This document shows, in pieces, positions 2,125 through 49,692 of a stretch of DNA of 64,000 bases. Numbering within the stretch: the first letter of the stretch is position 1; every line of letters starts with the position of its first letter. A program made the translations under genes and the position numbers. Where the stretch lies: assembly GCA_963765765.1 (NCBI GenBank), contig CAVXYC010000015.1, positions 96,001 to 160,000 of the forward strand, in the 5' to 3' direction. This stretch comes from an uncultured Chloroflexia bacterium. GTDB lineage: Bacteria; Chloroflexota; UBA6077; JACCZL01. Under the pieces are notes generated by a model. That model did not search any database and was not told the DNA's origin. It saw only the letters and a program-made list of their open reading frames with translations.

Positions 2125-2195
2125 CGCTGGTCCGCCAGTCGGGTCCCCTCGTGGCGCCGACTGGTTCGCTTGTTAATTCAATTTCCAGACGTCTT

Positions 2196-2282
2196 TGTCA
2201 TCCTGGAGCGCAGCGAAGGATCTAGCCCGCCGGAGCTCAGGACTTCCGTGGGCTAGATCCTTCGCTGCGCTCCAGGATGACA
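2196..2282. repeat. TGTC-tagged REP doublet (perfect 33-bp inverted arms)
   Basis: TGTCATCCTGGAGCGCAGCGAAGGATCTAGCCC at 2196-2228 and its exact reverse complement at 2250-2282, between convergent genes. Confidence 0.9.
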
Positions 2283-2374
2283 GAGATTACTTGATGAGCG
2301 GACGCCTACGTGTTCAAGGATTCCGACTGTGTCGGCAGAAATTCTCGCTGATACATTTGTAATCGCCACGTAAA

Positions 2375-3777: not shown

Positions 3778-3946
3778 TGCGATGTCCTCGTGAAAAGCGT
3801 CGTGATTGTGACGGTAGCCCCGATCCTGTGACGCCAGCAAGGTTCCACGCACTGAGTGAGCGCTTGATATGGCTTCGTCGTGTGTGTCGATGCCGTGCCA
3901 CCGAGCTTGCGCGGTCGTTACCGGCGCACGGGGGCGCCGACAATCA

Positions 3947-4061
3947 CCTGTAGCGCGGCGGTCTTGTGCCCCGCGGACCGGGATCCCTTAAGACGAATAA
4001 GTATTCGCCGTGAGTTAATGATCCCTGGTCCGCGCGGGGCACAAGACCGCCGCGCTACAGG
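3947..4061. repeat. GTAG-tagged REP doublet (REPIN-like)
   Basis: CCTGTAGCGCGGCGGTCTTGTGCCCCGCG (3947-3975) and its exact reverse complement (4033-4061); related copy at 51902. Confidence 0.85.
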
Positions 4062-4244
4062 GGAAGCTGGGACTGTAGCTCCCAATTGCGCCCGAGGATC
4101 AAGTTATGGAGTTGTATCAATTGCTCACTACGTGCGTTGGAATCTGGCTTACAAACCGGATTGACTTGATATTCCTTGCCATGATGGGTGCGTCGGGAGT
4201 CTTATAAAGGGGACTGCCCGTGCTGTCATGTAAGGAGGTGTCCG

Positions 4245-30158: not shown

Positions 30159-30235
30159 GTGGGGCGGGTCTCCGTACCCGCCAGCAGTCAACTCCAATCG
30201 GACACAACACTGGCGGGTACGGAGACCCGCCCCAC
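30159..30235. repeat. GTGG-tagged REP doublet (REPIN-like)
   Basis: 26-bp perfect arms GTGGGGCGGGTCTCCGTACCCGCCAG (30159-30184) and reverse complement (30210-30235). Confidence 0.85.
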
Positions 30236-40866: not shown

Positions 40867-42046
40867 ATGCCGCTGGACGCACTTCAGATCGGCGGCCAGG
40901 TCAAAGCGCTCAGCGCGCATCTCGAGTCGAACCAGGTTTTTCGGCGAGAGCGGCTGCCGCTGGCCCGCGAGACGCTACGCAGCCAGGCCGCAAGCTGGGA
41001 GAGCCTCGCGACACTCGCGGCGCGCTCGCAGAGTAGGCTCGCCACGCCGATTGAGCCATTGGACGCGGTCGCGAACGCGACTCCGGCGCCCGAGGCGTAT
41101 ACGGTCATGGCCACTGACGGTTCTCAGATCGAGCCAGATCATCACGGGATTGCCGAGTACTTCTTGATCAATCTCGGATCGGTGCGTCATTCGATACGGC
41201 GCCTCGCCAAATGCCCGGCTGGAGACGGCGGCACAGCTCTACTTCACCGACGAGGATCGATTCATCACCGACGGCTCTTCGGGCCGACGTCGTGTCCCGA
41301 TCCAGGAAGGACACCTGGCAGCACTGCGTAGCGTGAAGGAGCTGGAGGCGGTCGTCAGGCTAGCGGACGGCGAGCGGCTGGATTTTGAGCCGCGCGTGGC
41401 GCTGCAAGACGGAACACTACTGTTGTGGGTGCTGGAGCAGCGGCCGAATGACTACATACGCGAGCGGCTCCTGCGGCCGTACGTGGGACACCTGGAGCGC
41501 CTGAAGAGGCTCAATGTGCCAGTCGCAAGCTATATCAGCAGGCCGCGCAGCACTGAAGTTAGCGGACTATTGCGAGAGGCAACCTGTGGCGGAGACGTGA
41601 GTGGCTGCGCGTCATGCAGGCGAATTGGCAATCAGTGCGCACTCGATGCGCTGCACGATCGCGAGCTGTTCGTCGACCTCGAAATCGGCCAACGGTCCGC
41701 GCGATTCGCTGTAACCTTGAGCAGCGATCTCGACACCTACTACGCCGGCCATCGCATCCACTTCTTCTTCGTCCGCGTTGATGGTGACGAGATCGCCCGT
41801 GTGGAAGTGCCTGAGTGGGTGGCGACCGACGAGGTCGCGCTCCAACTGGTCCACAGTGTTGTGCTGGATCAGTGTCGGCGCGGGCTGGGCTACCCGGTCT
41901 CGATTGCCCGGGCGCACGAGAAAGCGGTCGTCACCGGAGCCGACCGATCGGTGGTTCGCACATTGATCGAATCCAGATTGGCTTACGATGGATTGCACGT
42001 GTCGAGCTCAGCGAAACAAGCCAGTAAGCGGATTCACGCCGTATGA
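40867..42046 (+). CDS. nurA: NurA-domain 5'-3' nuclease (frameshifted)
   Basis: ATDGSQ, LQDGTL, ARVEVPEW, GYPVSIARAHEKAVV. Confidence 0.88.
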
Positions 42047-42621
42047 GCGGCTGGCAAGGAGAGGTCGTGGAGACGCGCTCCACGGAGTTTGTCGCGCAAG
42101 CATACGACCACCGATCAGTCCCGCCATTCGGGGCGTTGCTGTGCTCCACCGTGGAACGAAGAACGATCTATGCGGTCGTCTATCAGGTCGCTACGACGGG
42201 GATCGATCCGGGATCGCGGCCGGTTGTGCGTGGCCACACGGGCCTTCGGGATCAGGCGATCTACGACGCCAATCCGGATCTCGCGCAGGTGCTGCGAACG
42301 GACGTGTCCGCGTTGATTGTCGGCTTCCACGATGGACCGACTCTGCGGCAGGTGCTGCCTCCCGAGCCGCCGCCACTTCACTGGACGGTGTACGAGTGCG
42401 ACGCCGAAGTCTGCCGCGCGTTTGGTGCAGATACGGCGTATTTGCGCTCGCTAGTAGATGCAGTACAGGCGCCCTCAGATGAGCTCATTGGCGCCCACGT
42501 GCGACTCATGGACTCCTACGCGGGTGCAGGCGATGCCTATCTGCCGCGCGCCGGCCGAGAGCTGGTGGAGCTATTGCGGAGCGATTATCCGACGATTGAT
42601 GGTCGATTATTGAGCGGGTGA
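42043..42621 (+). CDS. Stand-alone HAS-barrel domain protein
   Basis: GEVVET.STEFVAQ, PPFG, QVLPPEPPPLH..V; lies between nurA and herA; true end may be TGA at 42641. Confidence 0.75.
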   Translation: MSGWQGEVVETRSTEFVAQAYDHRSVPPFGALLCSTVERRTIYAVVYQVATTGIDPGSRPVVRGHTGLRDQAIYDANPDLAQVLRTDVSALIVGFHDGPTLRQVLPPEPPPLHWTVYECDAEVCRAFGADTAYLRSLVDAVQAPSDELIGAHVRLMDSYAGAGDAYLPRAGRELVELLRSDYPTIDGRLLSG

Positions 42622-42637: not shown

Positions 42638-43168
42638 ATGATCGGGTCGCATGTCTACTACGTGTACATCATGAGTAGTCTTCGCCGAACGCTTTACATC
42701 GGCATGACGAACAATTTGGAACGACGAGTGTTCGAACATAAGACCGGCACGGTACCAGGATTTACAAGTCGCTACCGAGTGACCCGTCTGGTCTACTTCG
42801 AAGACACGAACGACGTCGTCGCAGGGATCGAACGCGAAAAGCACCTAAAGGGATGGCTTCGCGCGAAGAAGGTGGCGCTGATCGAGTCGATGAACCCATC
42901 GTGGAACGACTTTGCCGAGGATTGGTTCACGCCGGAAGATCTAGCTGTACGCCGGAGTGCGTTCCTACGCACCGTTCGAAATCATCAACCCCAGACTCCC
43001 TGTCATCCTGAGCCCGCAGGCGAAGGATCTTCCCCGCCGGTATCAATAACCCCGGTGGGGAAGATCCTTCGCCTGCGGGCTCAGGATGACAAGAATCCCG
43101 GGCGAACTGGGGAAACTGCCGAAGTCCTGGAAATCGGTCAGGGCCCCAGTGGACCTGAACGCCAATGA
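42638..43168 (+). CDS. Small GIY-YIG nuclease with C-terminal extension partly encoded by a REP doublet
   Basis: YYVYIM...LYIGMTNNLERRVFEHK, FTSRY, LVYFE, EREKHLKGW, NPSWND. Confidence 0.9.
   Translation: MIGSHVYYVYIMSSLRRTLYIGMTNNLERRVFEHKTGTVPGFTSRYRVTRLVYFEDTNDVVAGIEREKHLKGWLRAKKVALIESMNPSWNDFAEDWFTPEDLAVRRSAFLRTVRNHQPQTPCHPEPAGEGSSPPVSITPVGKILRLRAQDDKNPGRTGETAEVLEIGQGPSGPERQ
43001..43091. repeat. TGTC-tagged REP doublet inside the GIY-YIG ORF
   Basis: 40-bp arms (one mismatch) TGTCATCCTGAGCCCGCAGGCGAAGGATCTTCCCCGCCGG, 11-nt loop. Confidence 0.92.
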
Positions 43169-44830
43169 CCTTCCCTCCTCCCTTCCACGATCGCCTCGGC
43201 GTCATCGTCGCCGGCTCGCTCATTGACGGGCTGACGGCGCGGTTGGACGCTCAGGCTTCGGTTGAGGACATGCGCGTTGGGAAGTTCGTGCGCATCTCTG
43301 GGGAGAAGCACGATTTCTTCTGCCTGGTTACGGACGTTGAGCTGGGCGCATCCAATGCCCAGATCGCGGAGCAACCGCCGGACCCTGATGACGGCTTCTT
43401 GCGTCAAATCCTGGCAGGCACCGCCACGTTCGGCACCATTTCCGTCCAGCCAATGATGATGTTCGATCGAGCGCTCCTCGCCGAAGGTCAGGTGGACGTG
43501 GACTCTGCTCGCGCGGTGAAGACGGTGCCGGTGCACTTCTCGGCCGTGCACGCTGGCGGACGAAGAGGATTTCAAGCGAGTCTTCGGCGTGGAGGATCAG
43601 GAGCACCCCAATCACTTTGAGATCGGACGCCCCCTGGACATGGACGTGCCGGTCTGTCTCGATTTGAAGCAGTTCGTGGAGCGCTCGAACGGCGTCTTTG
43701 GCAAGTCTGGTACGGGTAAGAGCTTCCTGACGCGGCTGCTTCTGGCTGGCGTGGTGCGCTCCAAAGCCGCGGTGAACCTCATTTTCGATATGCACAGCGA
43801 ATACGGTTGGTCGAGTCAGAGTGAGTCGGGAGACCGTCGGCTGGTGAAGGGGCTCAGTCAGCTTTTCGGCTCTCAGGTGTCGGCATTCACCGTTGACGAG
43901 CGCTCCACGCACCGCCGCGATGTGCGCCCAACGCCGGTGCGGATAGGACTGGACGAGATCGATGTCGAGGACATCGTTCTCCTGCAGGATGAGCTCAAGC
44001 TCAATCCGACGGCGGTGGAGCACTCACATCTTCTGATGGACGAGTTCAAGGGCCAGTGGATTTCGCGCCTGCTGGAGATGGACAACGATGAAGTCGGCGA
44101 ATTTTGCAGTCGGCGTGGCGGGAATCAGCAGGCAGTTGCGGCGCTCAAGCGGAAGCTAGGTGAGATTCAGCGCCTCGATTTTGTGGACGCCCACGTCGAG
44201 GTCTCGGCCGTTGACAAGATCGTCCAGTGCCTGGAGCAGGGCACGCATGTCGTGCTCGAGTTCGGTCATCATCGCGGCCTGCTGCCGTACATGCTCGTGG
44301 CCAATGTGTTGACGCGCCGCATCCACCAGAGGTGGGTGGACAAGACCGAGCGCTACAAGGCCAGCCAGCAAGCCTCGGACGAGCCCCGGCAGCTCATGAT
44401 TACCATCGAAGAGGCGCACCGCTTTCTCAACTCACAGGCGGCGCGACAGACCATTTTTGGAACGATCGCCCGTGAGCTTCGGAAGTTCTACGTCACGCTG
44501 CTTGTTGTAGATCAAAGGCCATCCGGGATCGATGACGAGGTGCTTTCGCAGATAGGTACGCGCGTTACCTGTCAGCTCAACGACGAACGGGATATCGATG
44601 CGATTCTGGCTGGTATGCGTAATCGCGATCAGCTTCGCTCGGTGCTGAGCACCCTCGAGTCTCGGCAACAAGCCATGCTCGTGGGCCATGCCGTTCCGAT
44701 GCCGGTCATCATCCGGACGCGGTTGTATGACGAGGATTTTTACCGAGCCATGGCTGTGCCCCAGTGGAGTGCTGCCACAACCGGACGCGCTGGCGACGAA
44801 TATGAGCGGCTCTACGGGGTCGGGGAATGA
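43165..44830 (+). CDS. herA: HerA-family helicase/ATPase (frameshift near 43550)
   Basis: N-terminal HAS barrel, GKSGTGKS, FDMHSEY, IEEAHRF, ARELRKF, DQRPS. Confidence 0.88.
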
Positions 44831-46044
44831 TTCGATTCGTCCACGTGGCAGACGTCCATATCGGCATGGATAACTACGGTCGAGTGAATCCGGCCACCGG
44901 CATGTCTACCAGGCTGGAGGATTTCCTCAACACCCTGGATGAGTCGGTCGATTGCGCCATTGAGCGGAACGCTGACCTTTATGTACTGGCCGGTGATATC
45001 TACAAGACGCGCGACCCAACGCCAACGCATCAGCGTGAATTCGCTCGGCGCATTCGGAAGCTCACCGGCGCGGGCATTCAGGTTGTGATGGTGGCAGGGA
45101 ATCACGACCTGCCGCTCTCACCAAGTCGGGCGACTGCGATCGATATCTTTTCCGCGCTCGATGTGCCGGGTGTTCACGTGGCAAGGGTCATTCGCTCGAT
45201 GCGCATCGAGACGCGAAATGGCCCGGTGCAGATCCTCGCGTTGCCCTGGATGACGCGCAGCATTGTGTTCGCGGACGATCAGCACAAGGGAGCGACGATC
45301 GAGGAGCTGAACCAGCGCATGGTCCAGATGTCCACCGACCGTCTTCGTCAGATCGGGGAGGACCTTGATCCGGAGATCCCCACGATGGTTATTGCGCACG
45401 CCCACGTCTTCGGTGCGAAGATCGGTGCTGAGCGCATGCTGAATGTCGGGCGTGATCCAGTACTTGCTCTCGATGCGTTCCCGGTGCAGAACATTGGATA
45501 CATTGCTCTCGGGCACATACACCGCCACCAGGCGCTCATCACGACTGACCCCGCCGTTGTCTATCCAGGGAGTATCAATCGGGTGGATTTCGGCGAAGAG
45601 GACGAAGACAAGGGTTTTGTCCTGGGCGAGCTGCACGTGGGTCGCTGCAAATGGGAGTTCGTCCCAGTAAAAGCGCGCCCATTCCTGACAATCTCAGCCG
45701 CTGTCGACGAGGATGCGCCGATGGATTCGGTGATCCAGGCGATCCGCTCGCAAGAAGATCGGCTGCAGAACGCGGTTGTCCGCGTGCAGCTGGTGACGAC
45801 TCGCGCGGGGGGATTGCTGGTCAAAGACGACGCGATCCGAGCCGAGCTGAAGTCCGCGTTTCTGGTTGCGCCGGTTCACCGCCAGTACTCCGATGATCTG
45901 GATCGGCAGCACGTGGAAATGCCAACTGGGCTGGCGCCTCTGGACGCGCTCGAGCTCTATTTGAGGCGCACCGGGCGATACGATGCCGACCGACAGCGCA
46001 CGTTGTTGGAGTACGCGCGCCGTCTCATGGCAGCCCGAGTTTAG
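44827..46044 (+). CDS. sbcD: SbcD/Mre11 nuclease
   Basis: ADVH, AGDIY, GNHD, AHAH, LGHIH, YPGS. Confidence 0.92.
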   Translation: MIRFVHVADVHIGMDNYGRVNPATGMSTRLEDFLNTLDESVDCAIERNADLYVLAGDIYKTRDPTPTHQREFARRIRKLTGAGIQVVMVAGNHDLPLSPSRATAIDIFSALDVPGVHVARVIRSMRIETRNGPVQILALPWMTRSIVFADDQHKGATIEELNQRMVQMSTDRLRQIGEDLDPEIPTMVIAHAHVFGAKIGAERMLNVGRDPVLALDAFPVQNIGYIALGHIHRHQALITTDPAVVYPGSINRVDFGEEDEDKGFVLGELHVGRCKWEFVPVKARPFLTISAAVDEDAPMDSVIQAIRSQEDRLQNAVVRVQLVTTRAGGLLVKDDAIRAELKSAFLVAPVHRQYSDDLDRQHVEMPTGLAPLDALELYLRRTGRYDADRQRTLLEYARRLMAARV

Positions 46045-46064: not shown

Positions 46065-48617
46065 TTGATTCCGCTCAAGCTCGGCATGCGCAATTTCATG
46101 TGCTACACCGACGTGCACGAGACGCTGGATTTCTCGGGCATTCACGTCGCGTGTCTCTCGGGAGACAACGGGCACGGAAAATCCACGCTGCTGGATGCCA
46201 TCACCTGGTCCCTCTGGGGGAGATCCAGGGCGCGCTTCGCCGATGAGCTCATTCACTCTGGTCGTACCGAGATGGAGGTGGAGTTCGAGTTTCTCCTGGA
46301 CGACCAGCGATACCGAGTCATTCGAAAGCGCGAAAGTCGAGGCGCTGGCAAGACAGTGCTCGAGCTGGCGGGCTTCTATGAAGACGGCTGGAGGCCACTG
46401 ACTGGTAACACGGTGGCCGAGACCGAACGTCAAATCCAGCAGCTCCTGCGTATGAGCTACGAGACGTTCACGCAGTCATCGTTCATTCTCCAGGGACGGG
46501 CAGACACATTTACCACCGCCACACCCGCTCAGCGTAAGCAAGTGCTGGGTGAGATCCTGGGACTGTCGTACTACGACGAGCTGGAAGGGCTTGCCCGAGA
46601 TCACGCGCGCAACCGGCAGGAGCAAGCAAGCAATATTCGCCTCCGCGTGGAGGAGACAGAGCGAGAGCTGGCTCGAAAGCCCGAGATCGAGGCCGAGCGA
46701 GATCGGTGCGAGGCACGTCTGGCCGGAATCGATCAGGAGATCGAGAAGGCGGAGCTTCGGTTGGCGGGGGCGCAGGCCACGTTAGCGCAGCTCGTCTCGG
46801 CCGAAGGTCAACTAGAGGATGTCCAACGAAACCTCGAGTCACTGCGAAACGAGCGCAACCAGGTGCAGAAGCGCCGTGAGCAGCTTTCGCAACGCCTGGA
46901 GAAGGCCAATCGAACCCTTGCGCGGGAAGAAGAGGTCCGAGAGGGCCATCAACGGCTCATGGCCGCCCGGATTGAGCTAGCGTCGCTCAACGATCGATTG
47001 CGGGAGCATGCTCGTCTGACGTCTGAAGCGGCGGTGATCGAGCGCGAGATTGCGGCGCGGCGAGGGGCGGCTGAGTCGGCCGTGCAGACGCTACGCGAGC
47101 GGCTGACTTCGCTACAGGCCACGGCGAGCCAGCTCAACGATCTTGAGCGACAGAGGGCGGACGTCGATGCTCGGCTTGCCGCTCTAAGCACGCAGGAGCA
47201 ACGTCGTATCGAGGTGGAAAAGAAACGACACGCGTTGAGCGAACGTCTTGGCGCTCTGCGAGGCTTGAACGAGCGGCTCCTGGCGGACATGGTGAGCCTC
47301 AGGCAGAGGATCAATCAACTTGCCGGGGCGGACGCCTGCCCGCTCTGCCGGGCTGAGCTATCGCCGGCACGCCATGCGCATGTCACCAGTGACTACGAAT
47401 CGCAGGGCCAACAGCTCAAGCAGCACTATCAGAGGAACAAGCATGAAGCGTCGCGGGCGGAAGTAGAGGCTGAAGCACTCTGCGCCGAATACGATCAGCT
47501 CGGAGTGGCGTTGGCCGAGGCCCCGGCGCTCCAGCGGCTCCAGGCGAGTATCGCGGCTTCCCTTGAGCAGACGCGCTCTGCCGAGACTGAGCTCCGTGAC
47601 GGTCAAGCCCGACTCGCCGAATTGACCCGAGCATTGGAAGACCAATCCTTCGCCGCCGCGGAGCACGCGCGCCTGGCGCCGCTACAGAAACAGATCGCAC
47701 TGCTGGAATATCGTCCCGAGCGTCACGACGAGCTTCAGGCGAGCATCGGGCAGCTTCAGCAATTCGAGCAGGCTCAGGCAACGCTGGAACAAGCGCGACG
47801 CGTGGTTGAGGAAGAGCGTCCTCATTTTGATGAGGTTGAGCAGAGCCTGCTGCGATTGAGTGCCATGGTGGCCGAATCGGAACAGCGCATGGCCTTGTTG
47901 AGCGAGCAGGCACGCGGTGTTGCCAATGCTCGCTCAGCCGCTGAAGCTGCCGACAGTGAGGCCCGCCAACGCCGCCGCGAGCGCGATACAGTGGCAGATG
48001 AGCTTGCCGCCGCCCGTCAGCAGCTTCAGTTCTGCGAGCGCCAAGCCGAGGTGCGTCGCGAGCTAGAGCGCGAGCTTCAGGCAGTTCTCAAGGAGCAGGG
48101 CATTTACGCCGACCTCGTTCTTGCCTTGGGGAAGAACGGTATGCAGGCAATGCTCATCGATACAGCCATTCCTGAGCTGGACGAACACGCGAATTCTCTG
48201 CTCACCCGTATGACTGATGGTCGGATGCACGTGAAGCTGGAGATGCAGCGACCCAAGCGCAGCGGCGGTGGTATGGCAGAGACGCTGGACATCAAAATCA
48301 GCGATGAGCTGGGCACGCGTAGTTACGAGCTGTACTCAGGTGGAGAAGCGTTCAGAATTAATTTCGCGCTCCGAATTGCTCTCTCGCGGCTCCTGGCAAG
48401 ACGAGCCGGCGCGCGTCTGCAGACGCTTGTGATCGACGAAGGCTTCGGAAGTCAGGACGTGGACGGTCGAGATCGGCTGGTTGACGCGATCAAGGCCATC
48501 CAGGACGACTTCGAAAAGATCCTGGTCATCACGCACATCGCTGAGCTGAAGGATGTGTTTCCGGTGAGGATCGAGGTTTCCAAGACGCCCGCTGGGTCCG
48601 TGATCGCGCTCACCTGA
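46065..48617 (+). CDS. sbcC: SbcC/Rad50 SMC-like ATPase
   Basis: GDNGHGKS, coiled coil with CPLC zinc hook, YSGGE, IDEGFGSQD, ITH. Confidence 0.93.
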   Translation: MIPLKLGMRNFMCYTDVHETLDFSGIHVACLSGDNGHGKSTLLDAITWSLWGRSRARFADELIHSGRTEMEVEFEFLLDDQRYRVIRKRESRGAGKTVLELAGFYEDGWRPLTGNTVAETERQIQQLLRMSYETFTQSSFILQGRADTFTTATPAQRKQVLGEILGLSYYDELEGLARDHARNRQEQASNIRLRVEETERELARKPEIEAERDRCEARLAGIDQEIEKAELRLAGAQATLAQLVSAEGQLEDVQRNLESLRNERNQVQKRREQLSQRLEKANRTLAREEEVREGHQRLMAARIELASLNDRLREHARLTSEAAVIEREIAARRGAAESAVQTLRERLTSLQATASQLNDLERQRADVDARLAALSTQEQRRIEVEKKRHALSERLGALRGLNERLLADMVSLRQRINQLAGADACPLCRAELSPARHAHVTSDYESQGQQLKQHYQRNKHEASRAEVEAEALCAEYDQLGVALAEAPALQRLQASIAASLEQTRSAETELRDGQARLAELTRALEDQSFAAAEHARLAPLQKQIALLEYRPERHDELQASIGQLQQFEQAQATLEQARRVVEEERPHFDEVEQSLLRLSAMVAESEQRMALLSEQARGVANARSAAEAADSEARQRRRERDTVADELAAARQQLQFCERQAEVRRELERELQAVLKEQGIYADLVLALGKNGMQAMLIDTAIPELDEHANSLLTRMTDGRMHVKLEMQRPKRSGGGMAETLDIKISDELGTRSYELYSGGEAFRINFALRIALSRLLARRAGARLQTLVIDEGFGSQDVDGRDRLVDAIKAIQDDFEKILVITHIAELKDVFPVRIEVSKTPAGSVIALT

Positions 48618-49580: not shown

Positions 49581-49692
49581 AGGCGCTCTGGAGTGCGGCG
49601 TGTGAGCGCCGCTTTGGATTGGACCCGAAATCTCTGGTGCGGATACTGGAAGAGTCCAAAGCGGCGCTCACACGCCGCACTCCAGAGCGCCT
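49581..49692. repeat. REP-like doublet with perfect 38-bp arms
   Basis: AGGCGCTCTGGAGTGCGGCGTGTGAGCGCCGCTTTGGA (49581-49618) and reverse complement (49655-49692). Confidence 0.9.

Follow-up and report, generated by a model that had tools for sequence, protein, structure and literature searches.

A GIY-YIG nuclease gene of the Ssn kind and a TGTC-tagged repeat doublet between nurA and herA in a Chloroflexota genome

REP sequences tagged with CGTC or TGTC were defined by Di Nocera et al. (BMC Genomics 2013, PMC3733652) and include dRS3 of Neisseria and RPE-4/6 of Rickettsia. In the accessible text of that article RAYTs are given as the mobilisers of GTAG REPs, the CGTC/TGTC REPs seem to have no transposase of their own, and its authors came across no tyrosine transposase with CGTC units at its flanks. 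An enzyme tied to such repeats was described later by Chenal et al. (Nat Commun 2025, PMC11893778): SsnA, a single-domain GIY-YIG protein of 94 aa with no DNA-binding domain besides (cd10448, GIY-YIG_unchar_3), is spatially associated with the NTS/SRM repeats, which are CGTC-tagged hairpins bound and cut by Ssn on ssDNA. As far as the accessible part of this work goes, an SRM lies near 71% of the Ssn homologues and on both sides of 42% of them, and four purified homologues cleave ssDNA site-specifically near their own repeat, duplex DNA, RNA and the reverse strand being left uncut. Chenal et al. likened the NTS-ssnA-NTS layout to an insertion sequence and also to RAYT/REP; transposition by Ssn is not demonstrated in the accessible text. 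Their Supplementary Data 4 lists Chloroflexus aggregans as having an Ssn homologue and yet an SRM fold enrichment of 0.91. Among the sources accessible to us, the literature from 2024 onward adds only a preprint in which SsnA loci are used as a benchmark.

The DNA analysed here, referred to as the window, is a stretch of 64,000 nucleotides from a genome of 6.49 Mb, whose nearest HerA relatives place it in Chloroflexota, and its features are listed together with those of the other loci in Table 1. The nuclease ORF contains a GIY-YIG domain (PF01541, residues 7–78, E 1e-12 in Pfam), the only domain found in a conserved core of about residues 1–97 (42638–42928). Residues Y10, Y20, R30 and E67 were invariant in an alignment of nine sequences, those from Neisseria and Kingella among them, which bears out the GIY-YIG core with conserved Tyr, Arg and Glu residues recognised in the initial annotation. 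No stop codon occurs ahead of the hairpin, and the frame runs through the repeat to a length of 176 aa; the resulting read-through tail of about 80 aa matches no family. The TGA of the ORF overlaps the start of herA in the sequence ATGA (43165–43168). BLASTP against the ssnA orthologue of N. meningitidis (L227) gave 43% identity over 87 aa with 69.3 bits and an E value of 5e-22, which refers to one pairwise comparison. Homologues were defined by Chenal et al. as proteins with E < 1e-10 against N. meningitidis SsnA, according to the accessible text (PMC11893778), and the window protein lies below this value. Its Kingella homologue was found by whole-genome search with an E value of 3.2e-17 and bears canonical NTS copies on both flanks. 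No match to the window protein came from the genomes of N. lactamica and N. mucosa that were searched, from NCBIfam or from a sequence search of the PDB. Homology and the catalytic Tyr/Tyr/Arg/Glu set place the gene in the Ssn family on sequence grounds, and the cleavage chemistry of its product is presumably that of the family.

Table 1. Positions of the genes and repeats discussed in the text (window coordinates unless a contig or locus is named).
Feature	Position	Strand	Basis or remarks
nurA, read as two ORFs (40867-41331, 41333-42046)	40867..42046	+	PF09376 on second ORF
Conserved 192-aa gene ("X") between nurA and herA	42043..42621	+	No match in Pfam or NCBIfam
GIY-YIG nuclease gene, assigned to the Ssn family	42638..43168	+	Pfam, homology, alignment, ORF table
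Inverted doublet of two TGTCAT-tagged units, tags outward	42990..43102	.	Repeat and folding analysis
Unit A of this doublet	43001-43029	+	
Unit B of this doublet	43063-43091	-	
herA, read as two ORFs (HAS barrel 43165-43620, DUF87 43589-44830)	43165..44830	+	PF09378, PF01935
mre11	44827-46044		Name from gene order; metallophosphatase match only in Pfam
rad50	46065-48617		Name from gene order alone
Nuclease-free doublet of the same family, inner variant GGAGCGCAGC	2192..2286	.	
Units of the nuclease-free doublet	2197-2222, 2256-2281	+, -	
Decayed GIY-YIG paralogue	C14:250283-250492		Ends at TGA after residue 75
Decayed GIY-YIG paralogue	C15:732370-732558	-	Stops and frameshift; GTCATGCTGAG dialect upstream
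Paralogue-flanking doublets, 129-132 bp	C14:250039-250661, C15:732662-732779		Stem GTCATGCTGAG (ATGCT)
Nuclease-free TGTCATCCTGAG array at X/herA junction	L207:2030-2510 (G005)		
Fused remnant of TGTCATCCTGAG units at X/herA junction	L215 (G011)		

The repeat that follows the nuclease core consists of two inverted arms of 51 nt (42990–43040 and 43052–43102) that are 88% complementary. Its central part, 42998–43094, forms a perfect palindrome (43+11+43) with a loop of 11 nt. As ssDNA this palindrome folds at -58.5 kcal/mol (z -14.1), and none of 200 shuffled sequences folded equally well. Each arm carries one unit made up of TGTC, ATCCTGAG, an inner mini-stem, GAAGGAT and then C, so arranged that a 2x2 internal loop separates a 5-bp stem beginning with A-T (ATCCT/AGGAT) from an inner stem of 3 bp, which carries a loop of 4 nt; the tail of the unit is CTT or CTA. 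The initial annotation had described a hairpin about 70 bp past the core, formed by two inverted units that are each a mini-palindrome, and a nuclease-free doublet near position 2196. The distance agrees with a core ending near 42928 and a palindrome starting at 42998, the second doublet was located, and the two-unit inverted hairpin stands. Regarding the single units, the ATCCT..AGGAT mini-palindrome is conserved but folds weakly, at -5.3 kcal/mol (z about -1) at the nuclease locus and at -2.0 kcal/mol at 2194. An Rfam search with 42993–43099 gave only sub-threshold scores for the plant microRNAs MIR6143 and MIR2933 (50 and 39 bits), which we read as generic matches to a long hairpin. Three further palindromes of the window, at 49581–49692, 3944–4064 and 30159–30235 (arms of 38, 32 and 26 nt, 97–100% complementary), fall outside the TGTCAT family.

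The whole genome contains 67 strict units, and a reversed control pattern gave none. When one mismatch per anchor was allowed, 144 units were found, corresponding to 39 tag-outward doublets and 66 singles, and no pair in the opposite arrangement was present among them. The doublets fall into two size classes, of about 91–101 bp and 129–135 bp, and the two arms of a doublet share one inner variant although their loops differ. Variable 5-nt flanks of the doublets were at one point considered as target-derived, and this was dropped: the flanks share the consensus CTCCC...GGGAG and are therefore part of the element. Three loci of this GIY-YIG type occur in the genome, and the window copy is the only intact one. 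The decayed paralogue on C14 is boxed by two complete long doublets of another dialect, GTCATGCTGAG, and the doublets flanking both decayed paralogues contain an inner CGGACATCGG/CCGATGTCCG inverted repeat; the ATGCT doublets are a second repeat dialect within the same genome. At the window locus itself, the repeat unit lies on one side of the nuclease gene only.

The published SRM search motif matches neither doublet of the window, and it is not enriched in the genome as a whole, where it has 61 matches; three genomes simulated with a first-order Markov model gave 63, 74 and 72. The fold enrichment of 0.91 listed for Chloroflexus aggregans is consistent with the motif missing units such as those of the present genome.

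Linkage of gene and repeat was surveyed at 79 homologous loci from Chloroflexota, Acidobacteriota, Bacteroidota, Planctomycetota, Nitrospinota and others, where the homologues occupy unrelated gene contexts across many phyla. The tag GTCATYY was counted from -45 to +170 of the stop codon, or within 250 bp upstream of the start. It was present at the stop in 68 of the 79 loci and upstream in 69, compared with means of 6.6 and 6.8 in thirty shuffles, and on both sides in 63 (mean in the shuffles, 0.4). The upstream unit was on the + strand in 43 loci and on the - strand in 26, whereas the downstream unit was on the - strand in 51 and on the + strand in 17, so that the tags mostly point outward, as they do in a doublet. 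A narrow pattern for the unit type of the window had matched at only 12 of the 79 loci; since the flanks revealed clade-specific stems (ATCCT, ATTCT, ATTCC, ATTTC and ATCCC), the tag-only count was adopted instead. A strict detector requiring GTC followed by a 5-nt Watson-Crick stem was also set aside: it scored 27 of the 79 loci downstream and 32 upstream versus 2.2 in shuffles, and the imperfect stems of Acidobacteriota escape it.

Stem classes were then compared with a tree of 159 loci, from which four were removed (ORF without stop or outside 80–165 codons) and to which the window protein was added; 27 rows of a rare class or of none were left uncounted, giving 129 labelled rows. The six main stem classes require 23 changes on this tree, whereas 200 shuffles of the labels required 61.8 on average and never fewer than 54. 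A single change suffices for the 36 rows and two classes of Acidobacteriota taken by themselves (300 shuffles: mean 12.3, minimum 7), and one metagenome-assembled genome has both protein clades, each paired with its own stem class. As a repeat adjacent to a gene is inherited together with it, the agreement between stem class and tree indicates linkage and not specificity. The initial annotation had proposed that this GIY-YIG subfamily is an equivalent of RAYT that recognises, nicks and spreads such palindromes, and had named tags in the flanks of homologues and co-variation of repeat and nuclease phylogeny as checks. A dedicated partnership between the subfamily and palindromes tagged with CGTC/TGTC is supported by the tags found on both sides of the homologues, by their excess at the stop and upstream, and by the number of stem changes; spreading by the nuclease would be a further step. 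Among 39 relatives (one genome omitted), a homologue was found in nine of the 14 with at least 20 strict units and in six of the 25 with fewer, a tally that is descriptive only, because the genomes are kin and many are incomplete. Five relatives with 23–89 units gave no homologue with the window protein as query, their completeness being 64–98%.

The nuclease gene and its doublet form a cassette of roughly 465 bp within the gene order nurA, 192-aa gene, cassette, herA, mre11 and rad50. The cassette had been thought to split the HAS-barrel gene from herA; this has to be corrected, since the HAS barrel forms the N-terminal part of herA itself and the cassette is bordered by the 192-aa gene on one side and the HAS-barrel ORF on the other, and so is not inside herA. 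It starts about 17 bp past the stop of the 192-aa gene and replaces the ancestral C-terminal tail of that gene, as judged by comparison of the junction with that of a genome of the same genus (G004). In three of three relatives checked, the HAS and DUF87 parts of herA are in one frame, as are both parts of nurA, whereas in the window herA occupies different frames and the nurA copy is frameshifted. The split of herA reflects either an assembly indel or a gene that is broken.

The 192-aa gene is present in 28 of 40 relatives and adjoins nurA wherever the locus was displayed. None of the 19 relatives carrying this gene had a GIY-YIG match between it and herA, and the cassette is consequently not a fixed member of the operon. 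The gap between the BLAST matches of the 192-aa gene and herA is at most 139 bp in 14 of the 16 loci with both neighbours, compared with 547 bp in the window. The two remaining loci, which belong to a single related genus, have nuclease-free TGTCATCCTGAG units at the junction, which suggests a hot spot of insertion, or an old insertion followed by loss. In the same-genus genome the 192-aa gene abuts herA through an ATGA overlap, and neither nuclease gene nor repeat is found there. Six sites of nuclease-free doublets were also compared with this genome: the doublet was missing at the three syntenic sites, the other three being non-syntenic and therefore uninformative. These comparisons point to gain or loss of both the cassette and the doublets without a nuclease at orthologous sites, and such empty sites are indirect evidence for mobility.

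We conclude, with a probability of about 0.82, that the window gene encodes an Ssn ssDNA endonuclease, that the doublet is its cognate SRM variant, and that the cassette entered the nurA-X-herA-mre11-rad50 operon in this lineage. By homology, the window protein would bind the folded unit on ssDNA and hydrolyse only the tagged strand, the cut falling a few nucleotides to the 5' side of the tag. A tag-outward doublet would then offer one cleavable unit at the 5' edge of each strand; the 39 doublets of the genome behave like REPIN-type units. Counting against this reading, the tags are base-paired within the doublet hairpin, and duplex DNA is not cut by Ssn. The lack of matches to the SRM motif, the weak folding of a single unit, the one-sided repeat and read-through tail of the window copy, the five relatives with units but no homologue found, and the shared inheritance that could by itself produce the agreement of stem class and tree also weigh against it. 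A part played by the nuclease in the origin or movement of the repeats would go a step further. The Ssn gene and the tag-outward doublets might constitute an autonomous/non-autonomous mobile pair, an analogue of REPIN/RAYT driven by a hydrolytic GIY-YIG ssDNA nuclease; cuts made by it at the 5' edge of a doublet, on each strand, would be followed by copying of the hairpin to new sites through the replication or repair machinery of the host. We regard this extension as possible but rather doubtful. Were it true, it would represent a route of transposition without a covalent protein-DNA intermediate, and the published SRM motif would be one dialect of many, the system being far commoner than has been counted.

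Other relations between gene and repeat have also to be considered. The nuclease gene could be a selfish element of the homing type whose insertion sites are tagged repeats that were already there; these would be its targets and not its products, and would have spread otherwise. The usual layout, with an upstream unit on the + strand, the gene and a downstream unit on the - strand, does resemble a doublet with a gene inserted in its loop, and the array of L207 and the remnant of L215 place nuclease-free units at the X/herA junction, so that the repeat may predate the gene there. DNA hydrolysis by GIY-YIG enzymes involves no covalent intermediate, and this suits homing better than cut-and-paste. 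However, the junction of the same-genus genome has neither gene nor repeat, the C14 paralogue sits between two complete doublets and not between the halves of one, and there are three gene copies, one of them intact, versus 144 units, which implies that the gene itself is not the proliferating part. All this makes the homing explanation unlikely to us. A further candidate for the mover of the repeats is another enzyme, for instance a transposase of the Y1/RAYT type, with the GIY-YIG gene hitch-hiking. The genome does encode three Y1_Tnp (PF01797) genes above the curated cut-off, and RAYTs are known for GTAG REPs from the accessible text of Di Nocera et al. (PMC3733652). Nevertheless, no HUH/Y1 transposase flanked by TGTCAT units was found: the nearest unit lies 2.8–18 kb from the three Y1 loci and only 146–212 bp from each of the three GIY-YIG loci, and the same accessible text reports no CGTC-flanked tyrosine transposase (PMC3733652). 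Such a mover is accordingly very improbable.

Least credible of all is a reading in which the nurA-herA-mre11-rad50 operon has the GIY-YIG protein as a constant repair component, next to a hairpin that is a REP of no relation to it or a terminator. The orientation of the gene, the same as that of the operon, and the overlap of its stop with the start of herA would fit such a factor. It is contradicted by the 19 relatives that bear the operon with no such gene at the junction, and the short X-herA gaps of 14 of the 16 loci and the tagged homologues in unrelated contexts across many phyla likewise speak against it; as for a terminator, no T-run follows the hairpin.

The Ssn endonuclease with a cognate repeat variant therefore remains our preferred interpretation. 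The initial annotation had presented the locus as a candidate new system, and in this it was anticipated, the association of gene and repeat and the cleavage of ssDNA being already contained in the accessible text of Chenal et al. (PMC11893778). The question about a partner enzyme of the CGTC REPs raised in 2013 was answered in 2025, and the locus thus opens no new field. What it adds to the Ssn work is a repeat variant that escapes the SRM motif, together with empty sites as indirect evidence of mobility. There are, then, Ssn partners with repeat dialects invisible to the published motif, and the tag was found on a given side in 68–69 of our 79 homologues, as compared with the 71% having any SRM in the accessible text of PMC11893778. 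The genome, in which a single intact nuclease gene stands beside 39 doublets and two decayed paralogues that have a dialect to themselves, is a natural test case.

Compared with the described systems, the window doublet belongs to the superfamily of CGTC/TGTC-tagged REPs as a variant. According to the definition in the accessible text of PMC3733652, it shares with them the unpaired TGTC tag, the stem starting with A-T, the 4-nt loop, the predominance of head-to-head dimers (39 versus 0 in its own genome) and a location mostly between genes. It differs in its stems, which are interrupted (5+3 bp) whereas those of the CGTC REPs measure 8–9 bp, and in its tail, CTT/CTA instead of CCA; in addition, no associated enzyme gene is reported in the accessible text of the 2013 paper. 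The likeness to REPIN/RAYT systems (REPtrons) lies in one intact enzyme gene per genome beside its own repeat, in dozens of inverted doublets with co-varying arms, in a gene flanked by inverted repeats and in a presence that varies at orthologous sites. Nevertheless, the enzyme is here a GIY-YIG protein of predicted hydrolytic action and there a single-copy HUH/Y1 tyrosine transposase acting through a covalent intermediate, and the tag and stems are unrelated to those of the GTAG REP doublets.

The closest relationship is that with Ssn/SRM. Differences from that system are the bipartite stem of the window unit (5+3 bp with a 2x2 internal loop, versus an 8-bp stem in SRM), the organisation of the repeats mostly as tag-outward doublets of 91–135 bp, the one-sided repeat of the window copy, the extension of its ORF to 176 aa and the host, a member of Chloroflexota. 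Common to both are a small core in which GIY-YIG is the only domain and the catalytic residues are kept, (Y)GTC-AT... hairpins beside the gene and dispersed through the genome, a C directly after the palindrome as in NTS, and homologous genes usually boxed by inverted units. The window locus is thus a further case of the Ssn/SRM pairing already published, its repeat being a dialect that escapes the published motif.
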